The translations under genes and the position numbers were made by a program. A DNA stretch of 45,289 bases from a virus (lineage: Duplodnaviria; Heunggongvirae; Uroviricota; Caudoviricetes), in the IMG/VR virus record IMGVR_UViG_2744054912_000003, positions 1-45,289 of that record. One strand, given 5' to 3'. Shown here one piece after another: positions 2,475 through 27,343 of this stretch. The notes beneath the pieces were generated by a model. That model saw only the letters and a program-made list of their open reading frames with translations, was not told the origin of the DNA and made no database searches. Each line of letters opens with the position of its first letter. Position 1 is the first letter of the stretch.

Positions 2475-3518
2475 TTAACCTATTGCTACTGGTTTTAACA
2501 AACCAGCATCAAGTAGCTTGCGAGTTAACCACTGCTGGCCTTTACCCGTTAATTGGGGCGTCAGCCGTATCTGGTAGCCATTTTCATCATCCAGCACCAC
2601 TTCTTTCACCGTGAAATACCCGGCGTTAATGTACTGCTGGCGCGGTACGTTTTTGCGCGCACCAAAAGCCATGAGAATGCCGTTCTGGCGCAACCATGAG
2701 AAAAGGGCGTTTTGCTTAAGTCCAACGACCTTTGCAAAGTTCCCGATCAGGATTCCATTAGCCGCTGATACCCGGTCGGCAAAATCGACTTTAGGGGCTG
2801 CGGCCACCAGCTGTTGTTCCAACTGCATTTTCTGTTCTGCCAACTCGGCAGCCAGGCGTAGAGCGTCTGGTAATGTTTGGGGGATCGATGGGGCAGGGGA
2901 GTTTGCCTGCTGCAATTCTTCCAGTTTGTCGATCAGCGAACGGCGGACTGCTTTTGACTCGCGCGCGGCGACTCGCAGGGCTTGTTTGTAGGTCATGGTT
3001 ATGACAACCATAGGCGTACCGCCACCTGGCGGCACGGTTGCACTTTTTGTGTAACCGTCCTCACCTTCTAATTCGTCGAGTATTTTTTTGATGAATTTGT
3101 TGTTCCGAACCTCTGGTTCCCCACATAACTTACGCGCTTCATTGACCATCTTTAACAGCGTCTGGCTGTCGATTGTGTCTCCAGTGTTGGAGATAACATT
3201 CACAGCTGGTGATGGCGTAGCTGAAGCAACAGATGCTGGTTTTTTAACATTCAAATTATTACTGGTCATTCTATGTGCCTCCTTTCTCATTTCTGCTGCC
3301 ACCGTTGCGTAACGTAGACGTCCTTGTTCAATCAAATAATCCCTGATCTCGGCTATCAGTAGCCTGTTGATCACAGCCTTATCTGTTCGGGTATAAAAAC
3401 GTCTGGTTATCATGAAATAGTTGGCAATTGCGCCGGGGATCTCCCGTGTCGGCATACAGGCAGTATGCAGGGCGATCGCTTCGGCTATGTCATTACGGGT
3501 GACGAGAGGTTTTTTCAT
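2475..3518 (-). CDS. ant1: Antirepressor Ant1 (Ant2 expected from an in-frame internal start)
   Basis: 347 aa; C-terminal antirepressor domain paralogous to KilA; lies downstream of a 73-aa ORF and an operator, as in the P1 immI region. Confidence 0.65.
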   Translation of the reverse strand: MKKPLVTRNDIAEAIALHTACMPTREIPGAIANYFMITRRFYTRTDKAVINRLLIAEIRDYLIEQGRLRYATVAAEMRKEAHRMTSNNLNVKKPASVASATPSPAVNVISNTGDTIDSQTLLKMVNEARKLCGEPEVRNNKFIKKILDELEGEDGYTKSATVPPGGGTPMVVITMTYKQALRVAARESKAVRRSLIDKLEELQQANSPAPSIPQTLPDALRLAAELAEQKMQLEQQLVAAAPKVDFADRVSAANGILIGNFAKVVGLKQNALFSWLRQNGILMAFGARKNVPRQQYINAGYFTVKEVVLDDENGYQIRLTPQLTGKGQQWLTRKLLDAGLLKPVAIG

Positions 3519-3736
3519 AAAACCCCCTGAACGTCGGCAGAGAAGGGGAGGTTCCAGTAACTAAGTGAATTGCGCGAGTTAGTTGAAAAACGGGCAGTAA
3601 AAATGCAGGGGCCATCAGGCAATTGAGAGCGTGCTTCGTCTTCTGTTGCTGCGATGACGAAGTGATAGTGGTGTTTTTTGCAGGAATAGAAACGCCAGAT
3701 GAATTCTTGGCGTGCGCAAGGATTGGCATTAACCAT
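3515..3736 (-). CDS. icd: Icd-like small protein, 73 aa, overlapping the ant start
   Basis: 73-aa ORF whose stop overlaps the ant start (translational coupling geometry); Shine-Dalgarno GAGG just upstream. Size and position match P1 icd as I recall. Confidence 0.5.
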   Translation of the reverse strand: MVNANPCARQEFIWRFYSCKKHHYHFVIAATEDEARSQLPDGPCIFTARFSTNSRNSLSYWNLPFSADVQGVL

Positions 3737-3789
3737 AGTTACGGCCTCGTAAGTTGATAAACAACCTGCGACCCGCTGCTAAACAGGTG

Positions 3790-3880
3790 GCAGGACGTGA
3801 CGGGGTTAGCAGACTGGCACTTACGAAACCAGCAGGCCGAAGCCTCCCCATCACGCCCCACCATAATTCGGGCGTAACGT
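3790..3880 (-). ncRNA. c4: c4-like antisense repressor RNA (approximate location)
   Basis: On the minus strand, UCUGCUAA and CGUAAGU (plus coordinates about 3802-3826) are complementary to UUAGCAG and ACUUACG located 40-80 nt further downstream, next to the icd ribosome-binding site. This is the two-site pairing expected for c4. Confidence 0.35.
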
Positions 3881-4048
3881 GGTTTACGGACACAAAAATA
3901 CCGCAATATCGGAAATCTGCGGTTGTCCGCGTAAGTATTCAGGCTGCTAAACCCGGTCGCAGAATTTGCTACGACGGCGAAACTATAAGCCTGAACGATT
4001 AAAAGGTCAATATGATGCAAAAAGATAGCATTCGCGACTTAAAAATAC

Positions 4049-4065
4049 AAATTTATTAGAGCAGA
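4049..4065 (-). promoter_or_regulatory. C1 operator-like site overlapping a sigma70-like promoter (Op51/P51-like) for the c4-icd-ant transcript
   Basis: Reverse complement TCTGCTCTAATAAATTT matches the operator consensus at 15 of 17; it is embedded in TTGCAC-N17-ATAAAT on the minus strand. Confidence 0.55.
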
Positions 4066-4346
4066 TTAGTGTCGTGCAATAGATATATTATTTGTGATGA
4101 AAAATAATGCAGATGGATATTGTAACTTTAAGATGGATATCAATAGTCGATACATAAATTAAGTTAGCAATAAACTATTAACTTAAGAAATAATGCAGAT
4201 GGTGAACTTGTCTCTGACTTTTCAGCTATACACAATAAGTTAGGGATAGCTTATAAAAAGTTGATTAATTGATATAAGTCAATGGGAGTATTCTTGTTTA
4301 CTTTCCGTTCTCGTGGTAACTTCTCGCCGGTTTTTGTTTTTCTGGG

Positions 4347-4868
4347 ATGATTCTTATGTCTAAAAAGTATACTTTATGCGCTCTTGTTGTATCTGCAATT
4401 CTTCTTTCTGGGTGTCAATCTAGCGGTGCTGATTATGCTGCCGATGTTTATGATACCGCTCAATTGAATTCGAAGCAGGAAACAAAGACAGTCAATATTA
4501 TCTCTGTGCTTCCAGCTAAAGTGAAAGTTGATAATAAAGCTAATAAAGAAGCGGCACAGACATTTGGTGCGGTACTGGGAGCTGTTGCTGGGGGCGTTGC
4601 CGGTTATAATGTTAAAGGCACATCGACACTGGGTGCTGTAGCTGGCGGTACTGGTGGTGCGGCTCTTGGTGCAGCGGCTGGTTCTTTGGTTAGTGATAAA
4701 ACAATTGTTGAAGGTGTTTCACTGACTTATAAAGAAGGAACTAAGGTGTTCACTTCAACTCAAGTTGGTAAAGCATGCCAGTTTACAACGGGGCTTGCTG
4801 TGCTTATTTCAACTAAAGATAATGAAACTCGAATTCAGCCAAATGCTACTTGTCCAGAAAAGAAATAA
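4347..4868 (+). CDS. Lipoprotein with glycine-zipper region
   Basis: Signal peptide with lipobox LLSGC; Gly/Ala-rich segment GAVLGAVAGGVAGY...GAVAGGTGGAALGAAAG typical of glycine-zipper outer-membrane lipoproteins. Confidence 0.7.
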   Translation: MILMSKKYTLCALVVSAILLSGCQSSGADYAADVYDTAQLNSKQETKTVNIISVLPAKVKVDNKANKEAAQTFGAVLGAVAGGVAGYNVKGTSTLGAVAGGTGGAALGAAAGSLVSDKTIVEGVSLTYKEGTKVFTSTQVGKACQFTTGLAVLISTKDNETRIQPNATCPEKK

Positions 4869-4871
4869 TTT

Positions 4872-5411
4872 ATGAATAAAATTATTTTATTTCTAATCTT
4901 TTCTACGTTTAGTGTAGGCACTGCCTTGGCTAACTCGTTGCAAAGTCAAATTGCTGCTATTGCTCAAGCGGAAAATGAAGGGCGAGCTAAAGAGCAGCAA
5001 GCTGAGGATGCCAGAAAAGAACTTATTCGCCAACAAGCACAAGCTGAACGTATTAGAAGAGAAAAAGCAGCATCTGCCGCTGCTGCACGCGAAAAACAGC
5101 GTGTTGCTGCAGAAAATGAACGTAGAGCGAAACGAGAAGCCGAGCTAGCAAATGACAAGAAGCGAGATCAAGCTTATGAGGATGAGCTTCGCAAGCTGCA
5201 ACTCGAAAGCATGAAACTCGAACTGCAAGCAAAAGCGGCTCGTGTCCAGCGAGAAAACGATTTTATAGAGCAGGAGTTGAAGGAGAGAGCAGCTAAGACA
5301 GATGTAATTCAGTCTGAGGCTGATGCAAATAGAAATATTTCTACAGGAAGTAAAGATTTACTGCAAAGCGAAGGAAAAGCTAGAGAGAAGAAAGCTAGCA
5401 GTTGGTGGTAG
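4872..5411 (+). CDS. Secreted charged coiled-coil protein with TolA-like Ala/Glu/Lys/Arg repeats
   Basis: N-terminal signal peptide (FSVGTALA-NS) followed by a long stretch such as AQAERIRREKAASAAAAREKQRVAAENERRAKREAE. Confidence 0.7.
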   Translation: MNKIILFLIFSTFSVGTALANSLQSQIAAIAQAENEGRAKEQQAEDARKELIRQQAQAERIRREKAASAAAAREKQRVAAENERRAKREAELANDKKRDQAYEDELRKLQLESMKLELQAKAARVQRENDFIEQELKERAAKTDVIQSEADANRNISTGSKDLLQSEGKAREKKASSWW

Positions 5412-5450
5412 TAATCACTACGATTGCGAGCATACTGTCACAAATGACAA

Positions 5451-6058
<608 letters not shown>

Positions 6059-6068
6059 GAGGGCTGAT

Positions 6069-6680
6069 ATGGGGTTTAATGTTGCTTCAGTAAAGTCTTA
6101 TGTATCTTCGGCATTAACGACGACATTATTTGGCTCCGGCGTTGGTGAACGGGAAGTTGGTAAGCTGACGTCAATCATCATGAACAAAATGCTGTTCGCG
6201 CAAGGATGGCAGTTCTCTGTCGAAGTTGATGGACTGGAGGGGGCAGACTTCTTTGCCAAAGATATTACCTACCACGATTACAGCATCGAATATGAAACGA
6301 TTAAAATCGGCGGAGGGAATATCCTTCAACCAACGGAGCGTTCGCCTGGGCAGATAACAATGATGGTCAGGGATACCGTTGATGGCCTCGTTTTGGACTG
6401 GTTTAAGACGGCAAAAAGTCGGGTGATCAATCCGGACGGTACCGGGAATATACCGTCTAAATATTTGCTCAATGTGCGTATTTATCGGTTGCTGTCTTCC
6501 GGCTTAACCAAACTGGAAAATGAGATGACGGTATTCCCGGTCACTACCGGCGATGTCACCTATGCGCGAGATCAGGTTACTGAATTTAAGTCATTCCCAA
6601 TGACCTTCGCATTGCACAGCACGTTTAACCAATCCTCAAGTTCTTTGGCTTCCCTTCTGGGCTTTAGCTTTTCTCTTTGA
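6069..6680 (+). CDS. Putative tail tube protein (position of P1 tub)
   Basis: 203 aa, strong Shine-Dalgarno (GAGAGG), position in the operon. Confidence 0.5.
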   Translation: MGFNVASVKSYVSSALTTTLFGSGVGEREVGKLTSIIMNKMLFAQGWQFSVEVDGLEGADFFAKDITYHDYSIEYETIKIGGGNILQPTERSPGQITMMVRDTVDGLVLDWFKTAKSRVINPDGTGNIPSKYLLNVRIYRLLSSGLTKLENEMTVFPVTTGDVTYARDQVTEFKSFPMTFALHSTFNQSSSSLASLLGFSFSL

Positions 6681-7657: not shown

Positions 7658-10600
7658 ATGGAAAGAAAAAACGCCAATATTGACGATGTTATAAGGACAG
7701 TTGAAACCGCCAGCGCGAAAGAGCTGAAAGAGCTTGCAGGTATTCGGGAAGCTGTTGAAGATTTGAAAGGGGAACGCGTTGCAACTGTTGACCCAGTATC
7801 TCGCAGTGTGTCGGCATTAAATCGCACAATCGAAAATTCACGTCCTGACTTTGTGACCAATGCGCCATCAGTGGACCCTATTGTTGACGCAATAAAACGG
7901 CTTAATTTAGGGGACGTTTCTCGTATACGGGAGGACAAAGTCACTAACCGTGAACAGCAGGCTGCACCAACAGCGCACAATCCCCCAAATAGACGAAGAG
8001 AGGCAATAACAGAGGATGTTAAAGCACAGCGGTTAGAAACGGTCAAACTCGCTCGTGATTTGAAAGGGGAACGCGTTGCAACGGTTGACCCAGTATCTCG
8101 CAGTGTGTCGGCATTAAATCGAACAATCGAAAATTCCCGGCCAGACTTTGTGGCCAATGCGCCATCAGTGGACCCTATTGTTGAGGCAATGAAACGGCTT
8201 AATTTAGGGGACGTTTCTCGTGTAGTTCAGGAGGATGTTGCTCTACAGGAACCGCAGGCCAAATCAACTACGCGAAAGGGTAAAAAACGACGCAAGAAGG
8301 CTATAACAGAAGATGTAAAGGCGCAACGGACCGAAGCAGCCGAACACGCTCGCGAAATGTTCGATCAAAAAGGCGGTGCGCAAAAAAGCCAAAACCAACG
8401 CGATGCGCGTGGTCGTTTTATTGGAAAGTCAGGGAGTAAGGCCGCAGCGGAAGATGCCCGTGCTGAACGTGCTGAAAAGGCCAGGCGCAAAGAGGATGAT
8501 GAGCGTCTAAATGCTGAATCAGGTTTATTAAAAAAACTGTCAAAAGTAGCTGAAGGCATAGGTAACCCTTCAGAGACTCGTGCCGTTGATGCGTTAGGTT
8601 ATGCCGTTGCTGGTCCATTGTGGGCAGCAGGGAAGGAGCTTGGCGGGATATCAAAAGAAGTTGGTGGATCGCTTAATGGTGCCAGAAAGTCTATTGCCGA
8701 TGTGATTCGTGGCAATGACGATAACAGCCGTAGAAAAGGTTTTTTTAGGCGTAAATCGCAAAATAGTGCCGATGTCGTTCAGGTTAACACCCAAAAACGG
8801 ACAGTTCAGGAACTTCAGGAGCAGACCAGCGAAATTAAAGAGGGCAATGACAAGATTCTCAGCGCCCTTGATCAGATAGCCAAAAACACCGGGAAAAAGA
8901 AGGGCGGCTTGCTGTCCAAACTATTTAGCCTGTTAGGGAAGGGGGCCGGTGGCGTCGCGTCGTTGTTAATGGGGCGTGGCATGCTGAAAAAAGCTGGAGC
9001 ACTCGCTTTTGGCGCTCTGGGGGCAAAGAAACTTGTAGGAATGCTACGCGGTGGTGGCAAGAAGACTATCGCCCATGAAGGTGGAGATTTGGCTGCCCGG
9101 GCAGCAGGTAAACTTGGATTAAAGGCAGTTGGTAAAGGGGCGTTACGCGCAATTCCCTTAGTCGGCACAGTGGCTGGAGGTATTTATGATGCGGTAACCG
9201 GTTGGAATGATACAGAAGCGCAACGTCGAGCGTTTGGGCTTAAATCAGGACAAGATCCATCATTCCAGCAAAAAGCCGCTTATACGTTAGCCAATGTTCT
9301 TGATATGGGGGGACTGGTATCTGGTATTAGCAGCGCCATTGGTGAGGTTCTCAAATCACTTGGATTTGAGGATATCGGCAATATGTTGCAATCATTTTCG
9401 ACGGAAAGTATTGCCCAGGCCATTGATAGTGGGATTACCAACTTAGAAACATATATTTCTAACCTTGGCGACACCATTTCTACCAAGTTCGAAGATTACA
9501 CAGCAAAGATTGGTGATGCTGTTTCAGCATGGTTTAGCGATACATCTAATAAGCTGCTTGAAAAGCTGGATGCCATCAAAGACTTCTTTACTGTTGATAA
9601 CCTGAAACAGGTTTTCAGTGATGCAATTGATAGTGCAATTGATTTCATTAAGAACCCAGGGAAACACATTAAAGAGGCGGCTGGTAATATTTGGGATGGG
9701 GTTAAAAATTTACCTGGTAAAGCATTAGATGCAGCGGTTGATGCCGTTAAAAATACCCCTGCGGCAATGATTGTATCAAAAATACCCAATCCGATCGGCG
9801 AGGCTAATGCGAAAGAAATCGCTCCAGAGTTAAAAGCTCCGGTTAATAGCGAGGCTAATGCGAAAGAAATCGCTCCAGAGTTAAAAGCTCCGGTTAATAG
9901 CCACCAGGAGACATCTGATTCTAAAACTGAATCCGATGCCAAACAGACTAATATTGTTACCCGCGTGATAAATGCGGCACTGGACACGGCGAAAGATAGC
10001 AATAAAACAGTTAAAGAAACTGCGAATCAGATTATCAATGCAAATGCCGCAGAAACGGGCAATAGCGCGTTGCAGAAAATTGATAAAGCTATTGGTCAAA
10101 ATAGCTCGTCATCATCGTCGCTTAATACCACTGGCACCAGGAATGACATTCAGAAAGCTGCGGATACCTACAACAATGGCCGCTTGGATGTAAAAGTCGG
10201 AAGTCTTGGATCTGAAGGTAAGGCAAATCTCGATAAGTTGGCTCCGTATTTTGCTGAACTAGAGAATAAATATGGTCTTCCAGAAGGCACTCTTTACGCG
10301 ATTGCTGCAACTGAATCTGGTGGTAATCCGTATGCAAAATCCCAAACCGGTGCTCTGGGAATGTTTCAGTTCACGGGGATTGCTCGTGAAGAGACTGGCT
10401 TAGCTGAAGGTGAATCGTTTGATCCTGTGAAATCGGCAGAAGCTGCGGCTCTTCTCATGAGCAAGTATCTGAAGCAAGCCAATGGAGACTTAAACGAGGC
10501 CATCACTGCATATAACGCTGGGTTTGGCACTATCAATAAGTGGAAAAAAGGCACAGGTGACTTATCGAAAGAAAACCGTGAGTACGCGATCAAGGTCAAT

Positions 10601-11398
10601 ACTCATCGTGCTCGCTATTTAGGTGGTGAAATCTATACACCTGGAGCAGGAGCACAGGGTGGGGCGCAATATGGAGTGAGGGGACCACTGCCTGATAACG
10701 CTGTTATCGATCAGTCTACTGGCCTGGCGTTTACCCCTGGTGATAGCCCGTTTGAGAAAGGCGGTCTGGTAGACAAAATCGGCAATGCTGTTGGCGTTAA
10801 CGATCTGGTCAACAAATTCATGAATGGCCGGGGTATGCGTCGGGAAGTCGTTCAGGGAACGCTCGAAGAACGTGCACGAGGGAAGGGGACCGCAACAGCA
10901 GCTGGCAATGTGTATGTTGATACTCCGATGCCAGTTGAAGAGGCGCGTCCGGTGACCAGCAACTCAAGTTACTTTGACCAACTCGGCGCACAAATGGGGA
11001 TTGATGGACTATTCGATAAACTCCGCAACTCGCCGGGGATGCGGAAAAATAATGCGCCTGAACCAGCCTCCACGTCCCAGGTGACGACTGCCGCCAACGA
11101 TTTGCAGCAACCAACCGGTCGTATGCAGATAGACGGACAGGTTATTAGTGACCTTGGTGGTTCCGGTGCCAAGCCGACAATGCAGTTGGCTGATAATACC
11201 GTTTCACTTGATGGTGAAACGAAGCGGCTGTTTGCGCAGATGACCTCATTACTTGCCAGGATTGAAGAGCACACCAAAGACTCGGCGAAAGGCCAGGGAA
11301 CTGTCGTAAAGGTCAGCACGCCTCAGCCGGGCGTTATGCGCACGGTACCACTGTCAATTGATGATCCGTTGATGAATGACTACGCGAGAGTTGATTGA
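7658..11398 (+). CDS. sit: Sit-like injection/tape-measure-type protein with soluble lytic transglycosylase domain
   Basis: 1246 aa; SLT motif LPEGTLYAIAATESGGNPYAKSQTGALGMFQFTGIAREETGL; internal repeats; Gly/Lys-rich segments. Confidence 0.8.
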   Translation: MERKNANIDDVIRTVETASAKELKELAGIREAVEDLKGERVATVDPVSRSVSALNRTIENSRPDFVTNAPSVDPIVDAIKRLNLGDVSRIREDKVTNREQQAAPTAHNPPNRRREAITEDVKAQRLETVKLARDLKGERVATVDPVSRSVSALNRTIENSRPDFVANAPSVDPIVEAMKRLNLGDVSRVVQEDVALQEPQAKSTTRKGKKRRKKAITEDVKAQRTEAAEHAREMFDQKGGAQKSQNQRDARGRFIGKSGSKAAAEDARAERAEKARRKEDDERLNAESGLLKKLSKVAEGIGNPSETRAVDALGYAVAGPLWAAGKELGGISKEVGGSLNGARKSIADVIRGNDDNSRRKGFFRRKSQNSADVVQVNTQKRTVQELQEQTSEIKEGNDKILSALDQIAKNTGKKKGGLLSKLFSLLGKGAGGVASLLMGRGMLKKAGALAFGALGAKKLVGMLRGGGKKTIAHEGGDLAARAAGKLGLKAVGKGALRAIPLVGTVAGGIYDAVTGWNDTEAQRRAFGLKSGQDPSFQQKAAYTLANVLDMGGLVSGISSAIGEVLKSLGFEDIGNMLQSFSTESIAQAIDSGITNLETYISNLGDTISTKFEDYTAKIGDAVSAWFSDTSNKLLEKLDAIKDFFTVDNLKQVFSDAIDSAIDFIKNPGKHIKEAAGNIWDGVKNLPGKALDAAVDAVKNTPAAMIVSKIPNPIGEANAKEIAPELKAPVNSEANAKEIAPELKAPVNSHQETSDSKTESDAKQTNIVTRVINAALDTAKDSNKTVKETANQIINANAAETGNSALQKIDKAIGQNSSSSSSLNTTGTRNDIQKAADTYNNGRLDVKVGSLGSEGKANLDKLAPYFAELENKYGLPEGTLYAIAATESGGNPYAKSQTGALGMFQFTGIAREETGLAEGESFDPVKSAEAAALLMSKYLKQANGDLNEAITAYNAGFGTINKWKKGTGDLSKENREYAIKVNTHRARYLGGEIYTPGAGAQGGAQYGVRGPLPDNAVIDQSTGLAFTPGDSPFEKGGLVDKIGNAVGVNDLVNKFMNGRGMRREVVQGTLEERARGKGTATAAGNVYVDTPMPVEEARPVTSNSSYFDQLGAQMGIDGLFDKLRNSPGMRKNNAPEPASTSQVTTAANDLQQPTGRMQIDGQVISDLGGSGAKPTMQLADNTVSLDGETKRLFAQMTSLLARIEEHTKDSAKGQGTVVKVSTPQPGVMRTVPLSIDDPLMNDYARVD
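7760..8221. repeat. Two ~165-bp direct repeats (7760-7924 and 8057-8221, about 95% identical) inside sit
   Basis: Duplicates the peptide LKGERVATVDPVSRSVSALNRTIENSRPDFV-NAPSVDPIV-A-KRLNLGDVSR. Confidence 0.85.
9800..9901. repeat. Perfect tandem duplication of a 51-bp unit inside sit
   Basis: GAGGCTAATGCGAAAGAAATCGCTCCAGAGTTAAAAGCTCCGGTTAATAGC occurs twice (encoding EANAKEIAPELKAPVNS twice). Confidence 0.9.
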
Positions 11399-24355: not shown

Positions 24356-27343
24356 ATGAGCTTAAGCGATCAGGTGGTAATGGCCACCAGCATAGAAACG
24401 CTGATCGAGCTGCTAAAAAACCTGCCCAATTACGGGCGGGTTTCGTATGTGGTGACAGCGAAGGGAGACGAGGTAAAAACAGCGTTTGATATCGTCGATG
24501 CCTCAGCTCTTTTGGTATCCAATACTCTGGACGGGAAAATTAACCCTGACTATCCCCAGGAACTTCAGCCGCGCGACCGGACCCGCGCATCCAGTCTTCT
24601 TCAGGTCAACCAGATATCCAAGGATTTGCGTCCTGCCCAGCTTACCGATTCCGGTTTATCCAGCCATGGCGCGCCGATAATTGGTGAGGACAATGCCGTT
24701 GAGTCAGGTAATGGACGGACCATGGGGATCATCAAAGCCTATCAGGACGGCAATGCGGATCGGTATCGTGAGTACCTGATTGATCATGCGACCGAATTCG
24801 GCATACGACCTGAAAAGGTTGAATCAATGGCGGCTCCGGTACTGGTGCGCCGCCGGTTAACTAAGGTTGACCGCGTTCAGTTTGCCAAGGACTCAAATAT
24901 TTCTGATCTTCAGGAAATGGCAGCCAGTGAAAAGGCTTTTGTTGATGCTGACAGCATAACTCCGGCGATGATGGCGCTGTTTAACCCATCAGAAAGCGGA
25001 GATCTGCTTAGCCGCAGTAATGACGCGTTTATTCGCGGATTCATGACGCAAGTTGGTGCCACACAGGCTGCTGGCCTTGTAACGGAAGATGGGCGACCAA
25101 CACGGCAACTTGTAGACCGTATACAAAACGCGATCTTTGCCAAGGCATATAAGGATGCGCGCCTGGTAAGGATGGTTGCAGAAGAAGCTGATCCGGATAT
25201 GCGTAATGTTCTGACGGCGCTTAATGCGGCAGCCAATGATTTTGTCCAGATGCAGGCTTTATCAGGAGAAGCGCACAAGCAGGCTGTGACAACTATTGTT
25301 GATGGCATTGAGACAGCGGATAGCCTCGATAAAAAGGCGCTGGCGGCATTGAAAGATGCGGTAGACCTGGTAAGGCAATCGAAGGAGTCAGGCCAACATA
25401 TTACCGATGTTATTGCTCAGGGGGATATGTTCAGCGAAACAGCCCCGGAAGTGAAAGCTCTCGCGTTGTTCATCGTCGCGAATAACCGTAGCGCGAAGCG
25501 TATGGCCACCGCTTTTAAATTGATGGCTCAACGTATCAATGATGAGTTACAGCACCAGGGCCAGGCGCTGGGGGATATGTTTGGCGGTGGTGATGTGTCG
25601 TTACAGGATATCCTTCGCCAGGTGTCTCAGGAACTGGAAAACGAAGGCATGCAAGGGATATCCGGCGGTCTTTTCGAGTCCGTTTCCGGCGGTAGTTACA
25701 ACGGTGTTGCTCCATATACCAGTTTGCTATTACATCGGGCATCCGGCATCAAAGACATTATTCATCTGATCAGGCTGCTTTCCCGTACAGATCCCCAGGA
25801 TGAACAGCTTGTACAAGTGCTTGCGCATTTTGTTCGAATGCCTGTTGCCGACGTGAAAAAATGGTGCCGATTATTCGGTATCAGCAATTCGTTACTTCGC
25901 GGCTTCTTAAATCACGCATCCTCCCTTGGGCGCGATGGCTTTGACGAGATAGCGCAGGCGATAAAAAACGGAGATATGCCACCAGCTATTGACTGGTTTT
26001 CCATTCGCCCAACCAGGGTGAAAGCATTCCTTAGCGCGGCGCATTCGGCATCACCATTGGCAGAAATGGTTCAGAGGTTGTCGCTCATATTCACAGACCA
26101 TACTGCGTTGGGTGATCTGACTCTGGACGAGATGAAAGAAGCCTCCATTCAGTGGGCCGATCAACAAAATGAGGTTAACTCAGACTTCTTGCCAGCATTC
26201 AGGAAGGCCGTTAGTAAAGCGGATGATGCCCGTGGAATTCTGAAGGCATTTAAGGCATTGCAAAGTCGGGTTAATAAACATGTCGGTGATATCGATGGGG
26301 TAACGGCGGAAGGCAGGGATATCCTTAAAGAGCACGGCATAACGCCAGAGTTTATTGATGAGATCAGGACGGATATGCAGCGTGAGGTCGTATCGTCCCT
26401 GCAAATTGTAGCCAGAGCGTTGGCGGATGCTAATCCGAAGAGTGCGGCCATTGTTAACCGGGTTATTGGTGATATTGAAGCATCGGAGGGCATGGGGGCG
26501 CTGAAACTCTTCCTTTCGCGAGCGTTTAATCCTAACGGCAATATTCTCCCTGGCATTATTGGTGAGGCTAAAAGGTATGTCAGTGAAGAAGAACTTGAGC
26601 AGCTTGACCAACTACTTAAGCGATTCTCATATAACCCGCAGACACGCTGGCAAATGAATCAGCGAAGTATGGGTTCGGTCCACGAGAAAGTGTTATCTGC
26701 CATGAACAGTGCGATCGCAAACTCATCCGTATCTGAAGAAAAAGCTCTTGAGTGGGCCGACTCTTTTATCACGGAAGAAGTGGAAGAAGCCCGCGCTGGA
26801 CAGAATGGTGGGATAGACCTGCGCAAGGAACTTGCTGATATTTATCGCCTGACCGGCGGTAAAATTTCGACCTTATCAAAGGTGGTTCACCACCAGGGAA
26901 GGGCATATGCAAATCTTAATGGTGTTGTTGCTGTCAATTTGAACGATGAAAATGCAAGTGCACTGTGGCACGAGCTGGGTCATCATCTTGAGTACAGTAA
27001 CCCTGGTTTGTTAGAGAAAGCCCGGTCATTCCTGAAGGCCAATGTTGAAGGGGATAAGCCATCTTTCGTTAATATCGGTGGGCGTGGCAAGCCTGAATGG
27101 TGCTTCAGATCTCGATTGAGTAATATTTATATGGCGAAGGTATACCCGCCAGCCTCAGTGAGTAACTCCGGGAAAATTCGGCAGAAAGCACCGACTATTT
27201 CAAAAACATCAGCAACGGAAGTATTCTCTATGGCTCTTCAGTTGTATCATGACAAAGAGGCCGCTGCCGCATCACTGATGAATGGTGACGGATTGCTGGA
27301 ACTGTTATTAGGTGTGGCAAAGGAGCTAAATAATGCAGATTAA
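24356..27343 (+). CDS. ddrB: DdrB-like large virion protein
   Basis: 995 aa (about 109 kDa) following ddrA. Confidence 0.5.
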   Translation: MSLSDQVVMATSIETLIELLKNLPNYGRVSYVVTAKGDEVKTAFDIVDASALLVSNTLDGKINPDYPQELQPRDRTRASSLLQVNQISKDLRPAQLTDSGLSSHGAPIIGEDNAVESGNGRTMGIIKAYQDGNADRYREYLIDHATEFGIRPEKVESMAAPVLVRRRLTKVDRVQFAKDSNISDLQEMAASEKAFVDADSITPAMMALFNPSESGDLLSRSNDAFIRGFMTQVGATQAAGLVTEDGRPTRQLVDRIQNAIFAKAYKDARLVRMVAEEADPDMRNVLTALNAAANDFVQMQALSGEAHKQAVTTIVDGIETADSLDKKALAALKDAVDLVRQSKESGQHITDVIAQGDMFSETAPEVKALALFIVANNRSAKRMATAFKLMAQRINDELQHQGQALGDMFGGGDVSLQDILRQVSQELENEGMQGISGGLFESVSGGSYNGVAPYTSLLLHRASGIKDIIHLIRLLSRTDPQDEQLVQVLAHFVRMPVADVKKWCRLFGISNSLLRGFLNHASSLGRDGFDEIAQAIKNGDMPPAIDWFSIRPTRVKAFLSAAHSASPLAEMVQRLSLIFTDHTALGDLTLDEMKEASIQWADQQNEVNSDFLPAFRKAVSKADDARGILKAFKALQSRVNKHVGDIDGVTAEGRDILKEHGITPEFIDEIRTDMQREVVSSLQIVARALADANPKSAAIVNRVIGDIEASEGMGALKLFLSRAFNPNGNILPGIIGEAKRYVSEEELEQLDQLLKRFSYNPQTRWQMNQRSMGSVHEKVLSAMNSAIANSSVSEEKALEWADSFITEEVEEARAGQNGGIDLRKELADIYRLTGGKISTLSKVVHHQGRAYANLNGVVAVNLNDENASALWHELGHHLEYSNPGLLEKARSFLKANVEGDKPSFVNIGGRGKPEWCFRSRLSNIYMAKVYPPASVSNSGKIRQKAPTISKTSATEVFSMALQLYHDKEAAAASLMNGDGLLELLLGVAKELNNAD

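Follow-up and report, generated by a model that had tools for sequence, protein, structure and literature searches.

What occupies the slot between the immunity region and the tail operon of a P1-type phage-plasmid when the P1 sim genes are replaced by something else? The question is raised by IMG/VR record IMGVR_UViG_2744054912_000003, a stretch of viral DNA of 45,289 nucleotides (nt; hereafter the window), in which an AT-rich leader is followed by two genes for exported proteins. A sequence-only reading of this DNA had placed the P1 sim locus near here and had proposed that the two proteins act in superinfection exclusion, the second possibly by interfering with Tol-dependent import. We identified the two genes as a mobile, diverged version of the Escherichia coli envelope gene pair yfgH-yfgI, situated exactly where P1 carries simABC. 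On balance we lean toward the view that they form a horizontally acquired accessory module of the moron type, a xenologue of YfgH-YfgI that reinforces or remodels the outer membrane of the lysogen.

A replaceable cassette in the sim slot

The source element of the window is a P7-like phage-plasmid of the P1/P7 type. Positions 3500-6100 were found to be 98-99.5% identical to phage P7, Salmonella phage SJ46, phage RCS47 and several records labeled P1. The two genes do lie between immunity region and tail operon, with ant1/2, icd and the C4 antisense RNA (c4/icd/ant) to the left and pmgC/tubA, tub, pmgB and the tape-measure gene sit to the right. The placement of sim near here turned out to be exact: positions 3500-4063 and 5440-6100 aligned to P1 on both sides of simABC, and only positions 4064-5439 were swapped. 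The slot holds 1376 nt in place of the 1513 nt with simA, simB, and simC in P1. We refer to this replaceable accessory cassette of the P7 type (4064-5439, unstranded), before which P1 homology ends at 4063 and after which it restarts at 5440, as allele A.

On the left, the cassette is bordered by the C1 repressor operator of the immI operon (Op(c4), also termed Op51; 4049-4065, minus strand), and the junction coincides with the distal edge of this operator. The operator fits the pattern ATTGCTCTAATAAATTT with two mismatches and has the same sequence as the annotated P7 operator; its final two bases, located at the junction, deviate from the consensus. On the right, the first part of the resuming P1-homologous DNA (5440-5491, plus strand) contains the late promoter LPsit shortly after the junction (-10 hexamer TAGAAT at 5455-5460), and pmgC/tubA (5492-6058) is located directly downstream of this part.

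Published work describes the sim region as variable among P1-like phage-plasmids (PMC9603915), and the sim genes of P1 are non-essential (PMC10695390). The cassette was 98-100% identical to those of P7, SJ46, and RCS47, and copies with 99-100% identity were found in 168 PLSDB plasmids and 11 phage records. With at least 80% query coverage, the sim cassette was found in 137 PLSDB records and the P7-type cassette in 182, and both are common alternatives in this database. Among 5426 complete E. coli genomes, a sensitive DNA search found a near-identical cassette in 165 records, mostly plasmids. The feature itself is already known: GenBank has listed the genes as P7 upf50.5 and upf50.0 for two decades, and identical copies are in hundreds of records. 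The P7 annotation describes upf50.5 as an "outer membrane lipoprotein of unknown function" and upf50.0 as a "membrane protein of unknown function," and assigns a signal peptide to each.

The yfgH-yfgI pair and its mobile relatives

Both open reading frames (ORFs) were present as previously described, and both products carry export signals, a lipobox in the first and a leader of the signal-peptidase-I type in the second. The first gene (P7 upf50.5; 4356-4868, plus strand) encodes a YfgH-like, SlyB-like glycine-zipper outer-membrane lipoprotein of 170 amino acids (aa), as judged from homology and the lipobox; an alternative ATG at 4347 would give a protein of 173 aa. Its N-terminus, MSKKYTLCALVVSAILLSGC followed by QSS, contains the lipobox L-S-G-C with Cys at +1 and Gln at +2 (AILLSGC, then QSS). 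The non-Asp residue at +2 makes this a predicted Lol-type outer-membrane sorting signal. The lipobox Cys is invariant across 40 homologs, and the alignment holds two invariant Cys. The presence of a glycine zipper was confirmed, and it was located in a Gly/Ala-rich segment at about residues 70-110, in which Gly 71, 75, 79, 101, and 105 are invariant among homologs.

The lipoprotein was found to be 69% identical to K-12 YfgH over 167 aa (E 5e-73). It also aligned over its full length (residues 10-162) with the solved SlyB structure 7ojf (phmmer E 6.4e-5). Pfam matches to Rick_17kDa_Anti/Gly-zipper were below cut-off for the lipoprotein, yet are recorded for many of its homologs. A low-confidence model of the monomer predicted a strand at residues 42-59, helices at 61-85 and 91-110, and strands at 115-160; with this model as query, SlyB was the only Foldseek match in PDB (E 2.9e-6). 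From its sequence, the protein is best classified as a full-length member of the YfgH/SlyB family. PHROG 1277 labels it "DNA methyltransferase," and the label has been copied in RefSeq records NC_050152, NC_031129, NC_042128, and NC_019445; this is clearly a mis-annotation.

The second gene (P7 upf50.0; 4872-5411, plus strand) begins 3 nt past the stop codon of the lipoprotein gene and encodes a YfgI-like secreted protein of 179 aa with a match to PF17358 (DUF5384). The match scored 147.8 bits against a cut-off of 25 (E 3e-43) and covered profile positions 4-145 of 145. Identity to K-12 YfgI was 47% over 179 aa. The N-terminus, MNKIILFLIFSTFSVGTALA followed by NS, consists of the leader and then a charged sequence rich in A/E/R/K/Q; the protein is Ala-rich and charged residues make up 41% of it. 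Its N-terminal half is variable, rich in Ala, Glu, Arg, Lys, and Gln, and almost without large hydrophobic residues, while the conserved C-terminal half (DKKRDQxYEDELR ... SWW) carries hydrophobic residues in a heptad-like pattern. Structure prediction gave one unbroken helix from residue 3 to 178 with a predicted local distance difference test score (pLDDT) of 88, so the mature protein is modeled as helical and roughly 23 nm long. DUF5384 is a small family, with 314 clusters at 50% identity, and its members are stand-alone proteins of about 150-230 aa. One DUF5384 protein of 409 aa (P0335) was considered as a YfgH-YfgI fusion and ruled out, as it merely has an N-terminal coiled-coil extension. 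We also considered yfjS/yfjT of CP4-57 as the identity of the pair; this was wrong, as the searches show yfgH/yfgI.

Chromosomal yfgH-yfgI, with about 69% nucleotide identity to the cassette pair, was found in 5420 of the 5426 E. coli genomes by the sensitive DNA search. The chromosomal and phage pairs comprise the same two families in the same gene order, with protein lengths of 172/179 aa on the chromosome and 170/179 aa in the phage, and the lipobox, the glycine zipper, the two conserved Cys and the conserved C-terminal half of the partner are found in both. They differ in that the phage proteins are only 69% and 47% identical to their E. coli counterparts, have a much lower GC content at third codon positions (GC3), and are encoded on a phage-plasmid behind a different AT-rich leader.

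A DUF5384 profile search gave 80 genome loci, one of which was left out (a contig of 336 nt). The YfgH-like gene was located immediately upstream of the DUF5384 gene in 79/79 evaluable genome loci and likewise in all 77 evaluable viral-contig loci. The paired loci span the Enterobacterales, Pasteurellaceae, Vibrionaceae, Aeromonadales, Pseudomonas, Moraxellaceae, Nitrosomonas, Acetobacteraceae, and others. Because the two genes were adjacent in every evaluable genome locus, we regard them as one module, and the YfgI family is an obligate adjacent partner of the YfgH family. No discussion of this obligate pairing was found in the YfgH literature, and the YfgH preprint does not mention yfgI.

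Three diverged alleles, A, B, and C, were found in the same slot of the P1 family. The allele B proteins are 84% and 80% identical to the pair in the window, and a DUF559/MTES_1575 gene follows them; its product is a protein of 415-419 aa. Allele C is 88% identical, occurs in E. albertii and E. coli, and is accompanied by four extra small genes. Around it we noted a 107-aa ORF, a 118-aa ORF, a protein of the YfjT family (PF27224) and a 389-aa SH3_3 protein. The cargo beside the slot alleles is located at positions 2972-4155 of locus L005, 9380-10623 of L170, and 4032-8298 of L183. In P1-like elements, the slot behaves like a hotspot for cargo. Between alleles A and B the ratio of non-synonymous to synonymous substitution rates (dN/dS) was 0.06 for one gene and 0.04 for the other with dS saturated, i.e., purifying selection is strong. 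GC3 in the cassette was 0.21-0.34 compared to a GC content of 0.49 for the window. Given strong selection, saturated synonymous sites and low GC3, the cassette is therefore old, foreign and functional.

Similar pairs were found on other mobile elements. Copies with about 71-77% identity occupy the end of a myovirus-type prophage, between a tail-fiber assembly gene and host DNA; this prophage was found at three different chromosomal sites. Others lie beside genes resembling lom-stf-tfa, on an island flanked by insertion sequences, and on Salmonella replicons of about 100 kb. These last contigs were considered as phage-plasmids but were not so called, as they had no match in the phage collection. 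Small ColE1-type plasmids carry the lipoprotein gene alone. In one of these, a mobilisable plasmid of 7.5 kb (NZ_CP073991.1; locus L006, 1911-4462), it adjoins a phosphoethanolamine transferase gene, and on a 4.2-kb Citrobacter plasmid it is the sole cargo. In a neighbor-joining tree (drawn without support values), the Escherichia chromosomal clade was separate from the P1-slot copies and from most of the prophage copies. Many IMG/VR contigs predicted as prophages (L110-L167), as well as the deposited record of the Shiga toxin (Stx) phage TL-2011b (41368-42352), end with a yfgH-yfgI pair of chromosomal type, 47% identical; these are probably host flank taken in at a prophage boundary next to yfgI/guaA and not phage cargo.

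What the pair may do in the lysogen

Several lines of evidence from the YfgH and SlyB families bear on function. Loss of YfgH leads to sensitivity to sodium dodecyl sulfate (SDS)/ethylenediaminetetraacetic acid (EDTA) and to depletion of LptD or other outer-membrane biogenesis factors, while overexpression rescues; rings like those of SlyB have been predicted for YfgH and are not a solved structure (bioRxiv 10.64898/2025.12.22.696046). A genetic interaction of yfgH with lptD has also been reported (PMC3219608). SlyB is a PhoPQ-regulated outer-membrane lipoprotein that forms rings (PDB 7ojf/7ojg). Alignment and model suggest that the phage lipoprotein shares with it the full length and the layout of a strand, a helical hairpin and further strands. 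Identity is only about 23%, however, and SlyB has no DUF5384 partner gene; rings of the phage protein are putative.

In the reading that we favor, one or more promoters within the AT-rich leader (4066-4355, plus strand) would drive transcription of the pair independently of the late tail operon downstream. The glycine-zipper hairpin would mediate oligomerization of the lipoprotein into rings of the SlyB type, which hold lipid and proteins of the outer membrane, and the helical partner, about 23 nm long, would use its conserved C-terminal half to cooperate with the lipoprotein on the periplasmic side. The outcome would be a lysogen whose outer membrane is reinforced or remodeled and which tolerates envelope stress, in addition to what the host gains from its own yfgHI. 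We conclude that the cassette probably remodels or reinforces the outer membrane of the lysogen. As a side effect, the accessibility of outer-membrane receptors to phages or colicins might change, although none of the analyses indicated this.

A number of points weigh against this reading. With yfgHI already present in the host, the gain from carrying a second, diverged copy lacks an explanation. The only phenotype reported for YfgI is sensitivity to nalidixic acid, and the role of YfgI itself is unclear (PMC3536626). We found no paper mentioning upf50.5, upf50.0, or DUF5384, and no experiment on the phage copy. The monomer model of the lipoprotein is poor (pLDDT 55.7). Support for a promoter within the cassette consists of one weak match to the consensus, and the number of such matches in the region was not above that expected from shuffles.

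Superinfection exclusion is plausible from the position of the cassette alone, and of the alternatives it survives best, although we consider it clearly less probable than a role in reinforcing the envelope. Here a ring-forming lipoprotein and its periplasmic partner, made by the prophage, would block P1-like or other phages at adsorption or DNA entry, or would block colicins, and would replace sim functionally. The slot is identical to that of P1 simABC, between Op(c4) and LPsit, and both cassettes have a low GC content and encode only products with signal peptides. On the other hand, P1 has three genes here compared to two in the window, the Sim phenotype is documented for P1 only, and no homology was detectable: aligning both proteins with SimA, SimB, and SimC, as the sequence-only reading had suggested, revealed no likeness (best BLASTP E 0.07 over 30 residues). 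Neither did either protein match a defense family of PADLOC-DB at E ≤ 0.1.

A remote likeness to the plasmid surface-exclusion lipoprotein TraT is also in favor of exclusion. TraT, the surface-exclusion and serum-resistance lipoprotein of F-like plasmids, for which decameric structures are available (9fs5, 9e2v), is likewise an outer-membrane lipoprotein on a mobile element, with local similarity over the glycine-zipper hairpin and the strands that follow. With F TraT, hhalign gave a probability of 86% over 72 columns. TraT is longer (243 aa) and has no helical partner, the alignment is limited to these 72 columns, and the match of the lipoprotein to PF05818 (E 6.9e-5, residues 56-142 only) scored 23.1 bits, below the Pfam gathering threshold of 31. 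Foldseek with the low-confidence monomer model returned SlyB only and no TraT. The similarity, as far as it can be read from the alignments, indicates a shared hairpin module and not family membership.

The genomic company of the mobile copies adds to the argument. Receptor-blocking lipoproteins such as those encoded by cor and llp are typically encoded beside tail-fiber genes, and in other prophages the yfgHI-like pair adjoins tail-fiber and fiber-assembly genes in the same way. Like the phage YfgH-like protein, Llp of T5 and Cor of T1/phi80-like phages are small phage-encoded outer-membrane lipoproteins. They bind FhuA as monomers (bioRxiv 10.64898/2026.03.26.714494) and show no sequence relationship to the YfgH-like protein, which in contrast is a homolog of a host gene and has a partner protein. 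The existence of several alternative alleles at one locus would also fit exclusion. Against it stand the 69% identity of the lipoprotein to a housekeeping protein that every E. coli already makes, and the low dN/dS of both genes, which bears no arms-race signature.

A variant of this idea, to which we give somewhat less credence still, takes the yfgHI-like pair as an exclusion device of an undescribed kind. Temperate phages would repeatedly capture a membrane-stabilizing module of the host and express a diverged copy of it, the rings of which would corral receptors or patches of lipopolysaccharide and so block superinfecting phages or colicins; the 23-nm helical partner would brace the SlyB-like rings from the periplasm. 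Receptor-corralling rings would explain both the replacement of sim and the tail-fiber neighborhood in other prophages.

We consider it improbable that the pair serves the lytic cycle, by stabilizing the outer membrane during virion assembly or by tuning the timing of its disruption at lysis. The cassette does lie directly upstream of the late operon, and the YfgH family stabilizes the outer membrane under stress. However, the late promoter LPsit is located downstream of the cassette and not upstream, the slot is dispensable and variable with P1 itself lacking these genes, and the lysis genes of the P1 family are found elsewhere.

Two further explanations are very unlikely. The description of the second protein as TolA-like was accurate for its composition and did not extend to homology: the resemblance arises because the N-terminal half is charged, Ala-rich and variable while the C-terminal half is conserved. 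We found no TolA family in Pfam/NCBIfam at E ≤ 0.1 and no PDB sequence match at E ≤ 10. The proposed interference with Tol is without basis, because the protein lacks a TolA match and is a clear DUF5384/YfgI homolog. A mimic that titrates Tol-Pal partners and so prevents phage DNA or group A colicins from entering by the Tol-dependent route has only composition and shape in its favor (41% charged, Ala-rich, one long predicted helix), while the conserved part of the protein is its C-terminal half, the TolA-like charged stretch is the variable part, and the gene is always paired with yfgH and not with tol genes. That the cassette is a neutral hitch-hiker, i.e., functionless DNA from illegitimate recombination with a chance repeat, would agree with its foreign base composition and with a repeat that is exact in a minority lineage only and absent from alleles B and C, but is hard to maintain with both frames intact in more than 180 plasmids, very strong purifying selection between alleles, and repeated independent acquisitions by different mobile elements.

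The leader, the flanking genes and implications

The leader was correctly described as AT-rich: its GC content is 0.31, and GC drops to 0.27 at positions 4000-4300 compared to 0.49 for the whole window. It is the presumed site of the promoter(s) of the cassette. The sole sigma-70-like match on the plus strand is TAGATA-17-AATAAT (4080-4108). No Rfam family was found in the leader, and its fold was no better than that of shuffled sequences (z = -0.19). The only Rfam matches in the region lie to the left of the cassette, on the minus strand, and are C4 (3783-3868) and its a1/b1 targets (3936-3988).

The 15-nt repeat AAATAATGCAGATGG is present in two exact copies on the plus strand (4102-4116 and 4188-4202) as claimed, with a start-to-start distance of 86 nt where about 87 had been given. 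The -10 hexamer of the sigma-70-like match falls inside copy 1. None of 100 shuffles of the window contained as many matches to the repeat, and an exact 15-mer repeat arose in 2/1000 Markov-1 simulations of the 290-nt leader (a match of 14/15 quality in 8/1000). Position 4114 is G and not T in 17 of the 19 leaders of the same cassette that were sampled, the window included, and most relatives read GCAGAGGG at the end of copy 1; the repeat is therefore usually 14/15 among relatives. The T at 4114 makes both the 15-nt repeat and a 10-nt repeat, AGATGGATAT (4111-4120 and 4131-4140), exact in this lineage. The 15-nt repeat was not found in alleles B and C, nor upstream of any other yfgH examined, whether chromosomal or prophage copies. 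At 27328 there is a third near-match, which simply reflects where a different gene has its ribosome-binding and start region. The repeat was rejected as a conserved regulatory site, as it is absent from the other alleles and 14/15 in most relatives of allele A. It is real in the window sequence but weakly conserved, and it may be just a duplicated segment resembling a promoter core. An ATG within each copy opens a mini-ORF of 16 codons (4107-4157, MQMDIVTLRWISIVDT; 4193-4243, MQMVNLSLTFQLYTIS). Neither is preceded by a clear Shine-Dalgarno sequence, and their equal lengths may be coincidence.

The leaders of the three slot alleles have little in common other than the C1 operator and a palindrome block about 70 nt upstream of the ATG. 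The palindrome has an FNR/CRP-type core, TTGA-N6-TCAA, and is located at the same relative position in all three alleles; it reads TTGATATAAGTCAA in the window (4269-4282, plus strand), TTGATATACATCAA in allele B, and TTGACATTTGTCAA in allele C. The consensus AATTGA(T/C)AT-N3-(G/A)TCAAT, followed by about 15 conserved bases, was observed at 4267-4284 in the window, at about 1522-1539 in L005, and at about 4915-4932 in L183. The block was not found upstream of chromosomal yfgH. Five FNR/CRP-type sites were found in the window against 2.5 expected, and a single site is not significant alone. A good -10 hexamer at class II distance from the palindrome was present in allele C only, with none convincing in alleles A and B. 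An anaerobic or CRP-family regulator might bind the palindrome; we put this forward as a lead only. The S. Typhi orthologs of yfgHI (srgIL) are induced by SdiA together with acyl-homoserine lactone (PMC11619404).

Three other observations concern the remainder of the window. The recognition element of the C4 RNA (3786-3862, minus strand) reads ACTTACG on the plus strand, compared to GATTGTG in P7 and GTTAGTG in P1, and its target sites b2 and b1 (3748-3754 and 3930-3936) have both co-varied to CGTAAGT. The co-variation of element and targets suggests a third immI specificity, which would be heteroimmune to P1 and P7. The product of the sit-like tape-measure/transglycosylase gene (7658-11398, 1246 aa) is internally duplicated over about 120 residues close to its N-terminus (GERVATVDPVSRSVSALNRTIENSRPDF... 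is found twice) and also contains a tandem ANAKEIAPELKAPVNS repeat. Finally, a 51-aa ORF for a Hok/Gef-type toxin (beginning MKQQKAILIALIVICLTVIVTALVTRKDLCEVRIRTGQTEV) was found beyond repL at 146-301 on the minus strand.

Beyond the GenBank record of the P7 genes, the present analysis identifies the cassette as a yfgH-yfgI xenologue located exactly in the sim slot, and shows that the two families are obligately paired, that the slot is polymorphic with three alleles under purifying selection, and that the pair recurs in other prophages; the Sim and TolA readings were rejected. It also corrects a propagated "DNA methyltransferase" annotation. By its homology, the cassette is a mobile member of a known family with a candidate role in lysogenic conversion. 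If the pair instead excludes phages, this would explain why sim and yfgHI alternate in the slot. Should the phage copy work like YfgH/YfgI, it would provide a natural and transferable gain-of-function allele for the study of a poorly understood envelope pair, and could clarify the role of YfgI. P7-type phage-plasmids, which are frequent vehicles of resistance genes in animal and human isolates of E. coli and Salmonella, would then alter the outer-membrane robustness of their hosts, with possible consequences for how well these tolerate detergents, bile, chelators, and cationic peptides.

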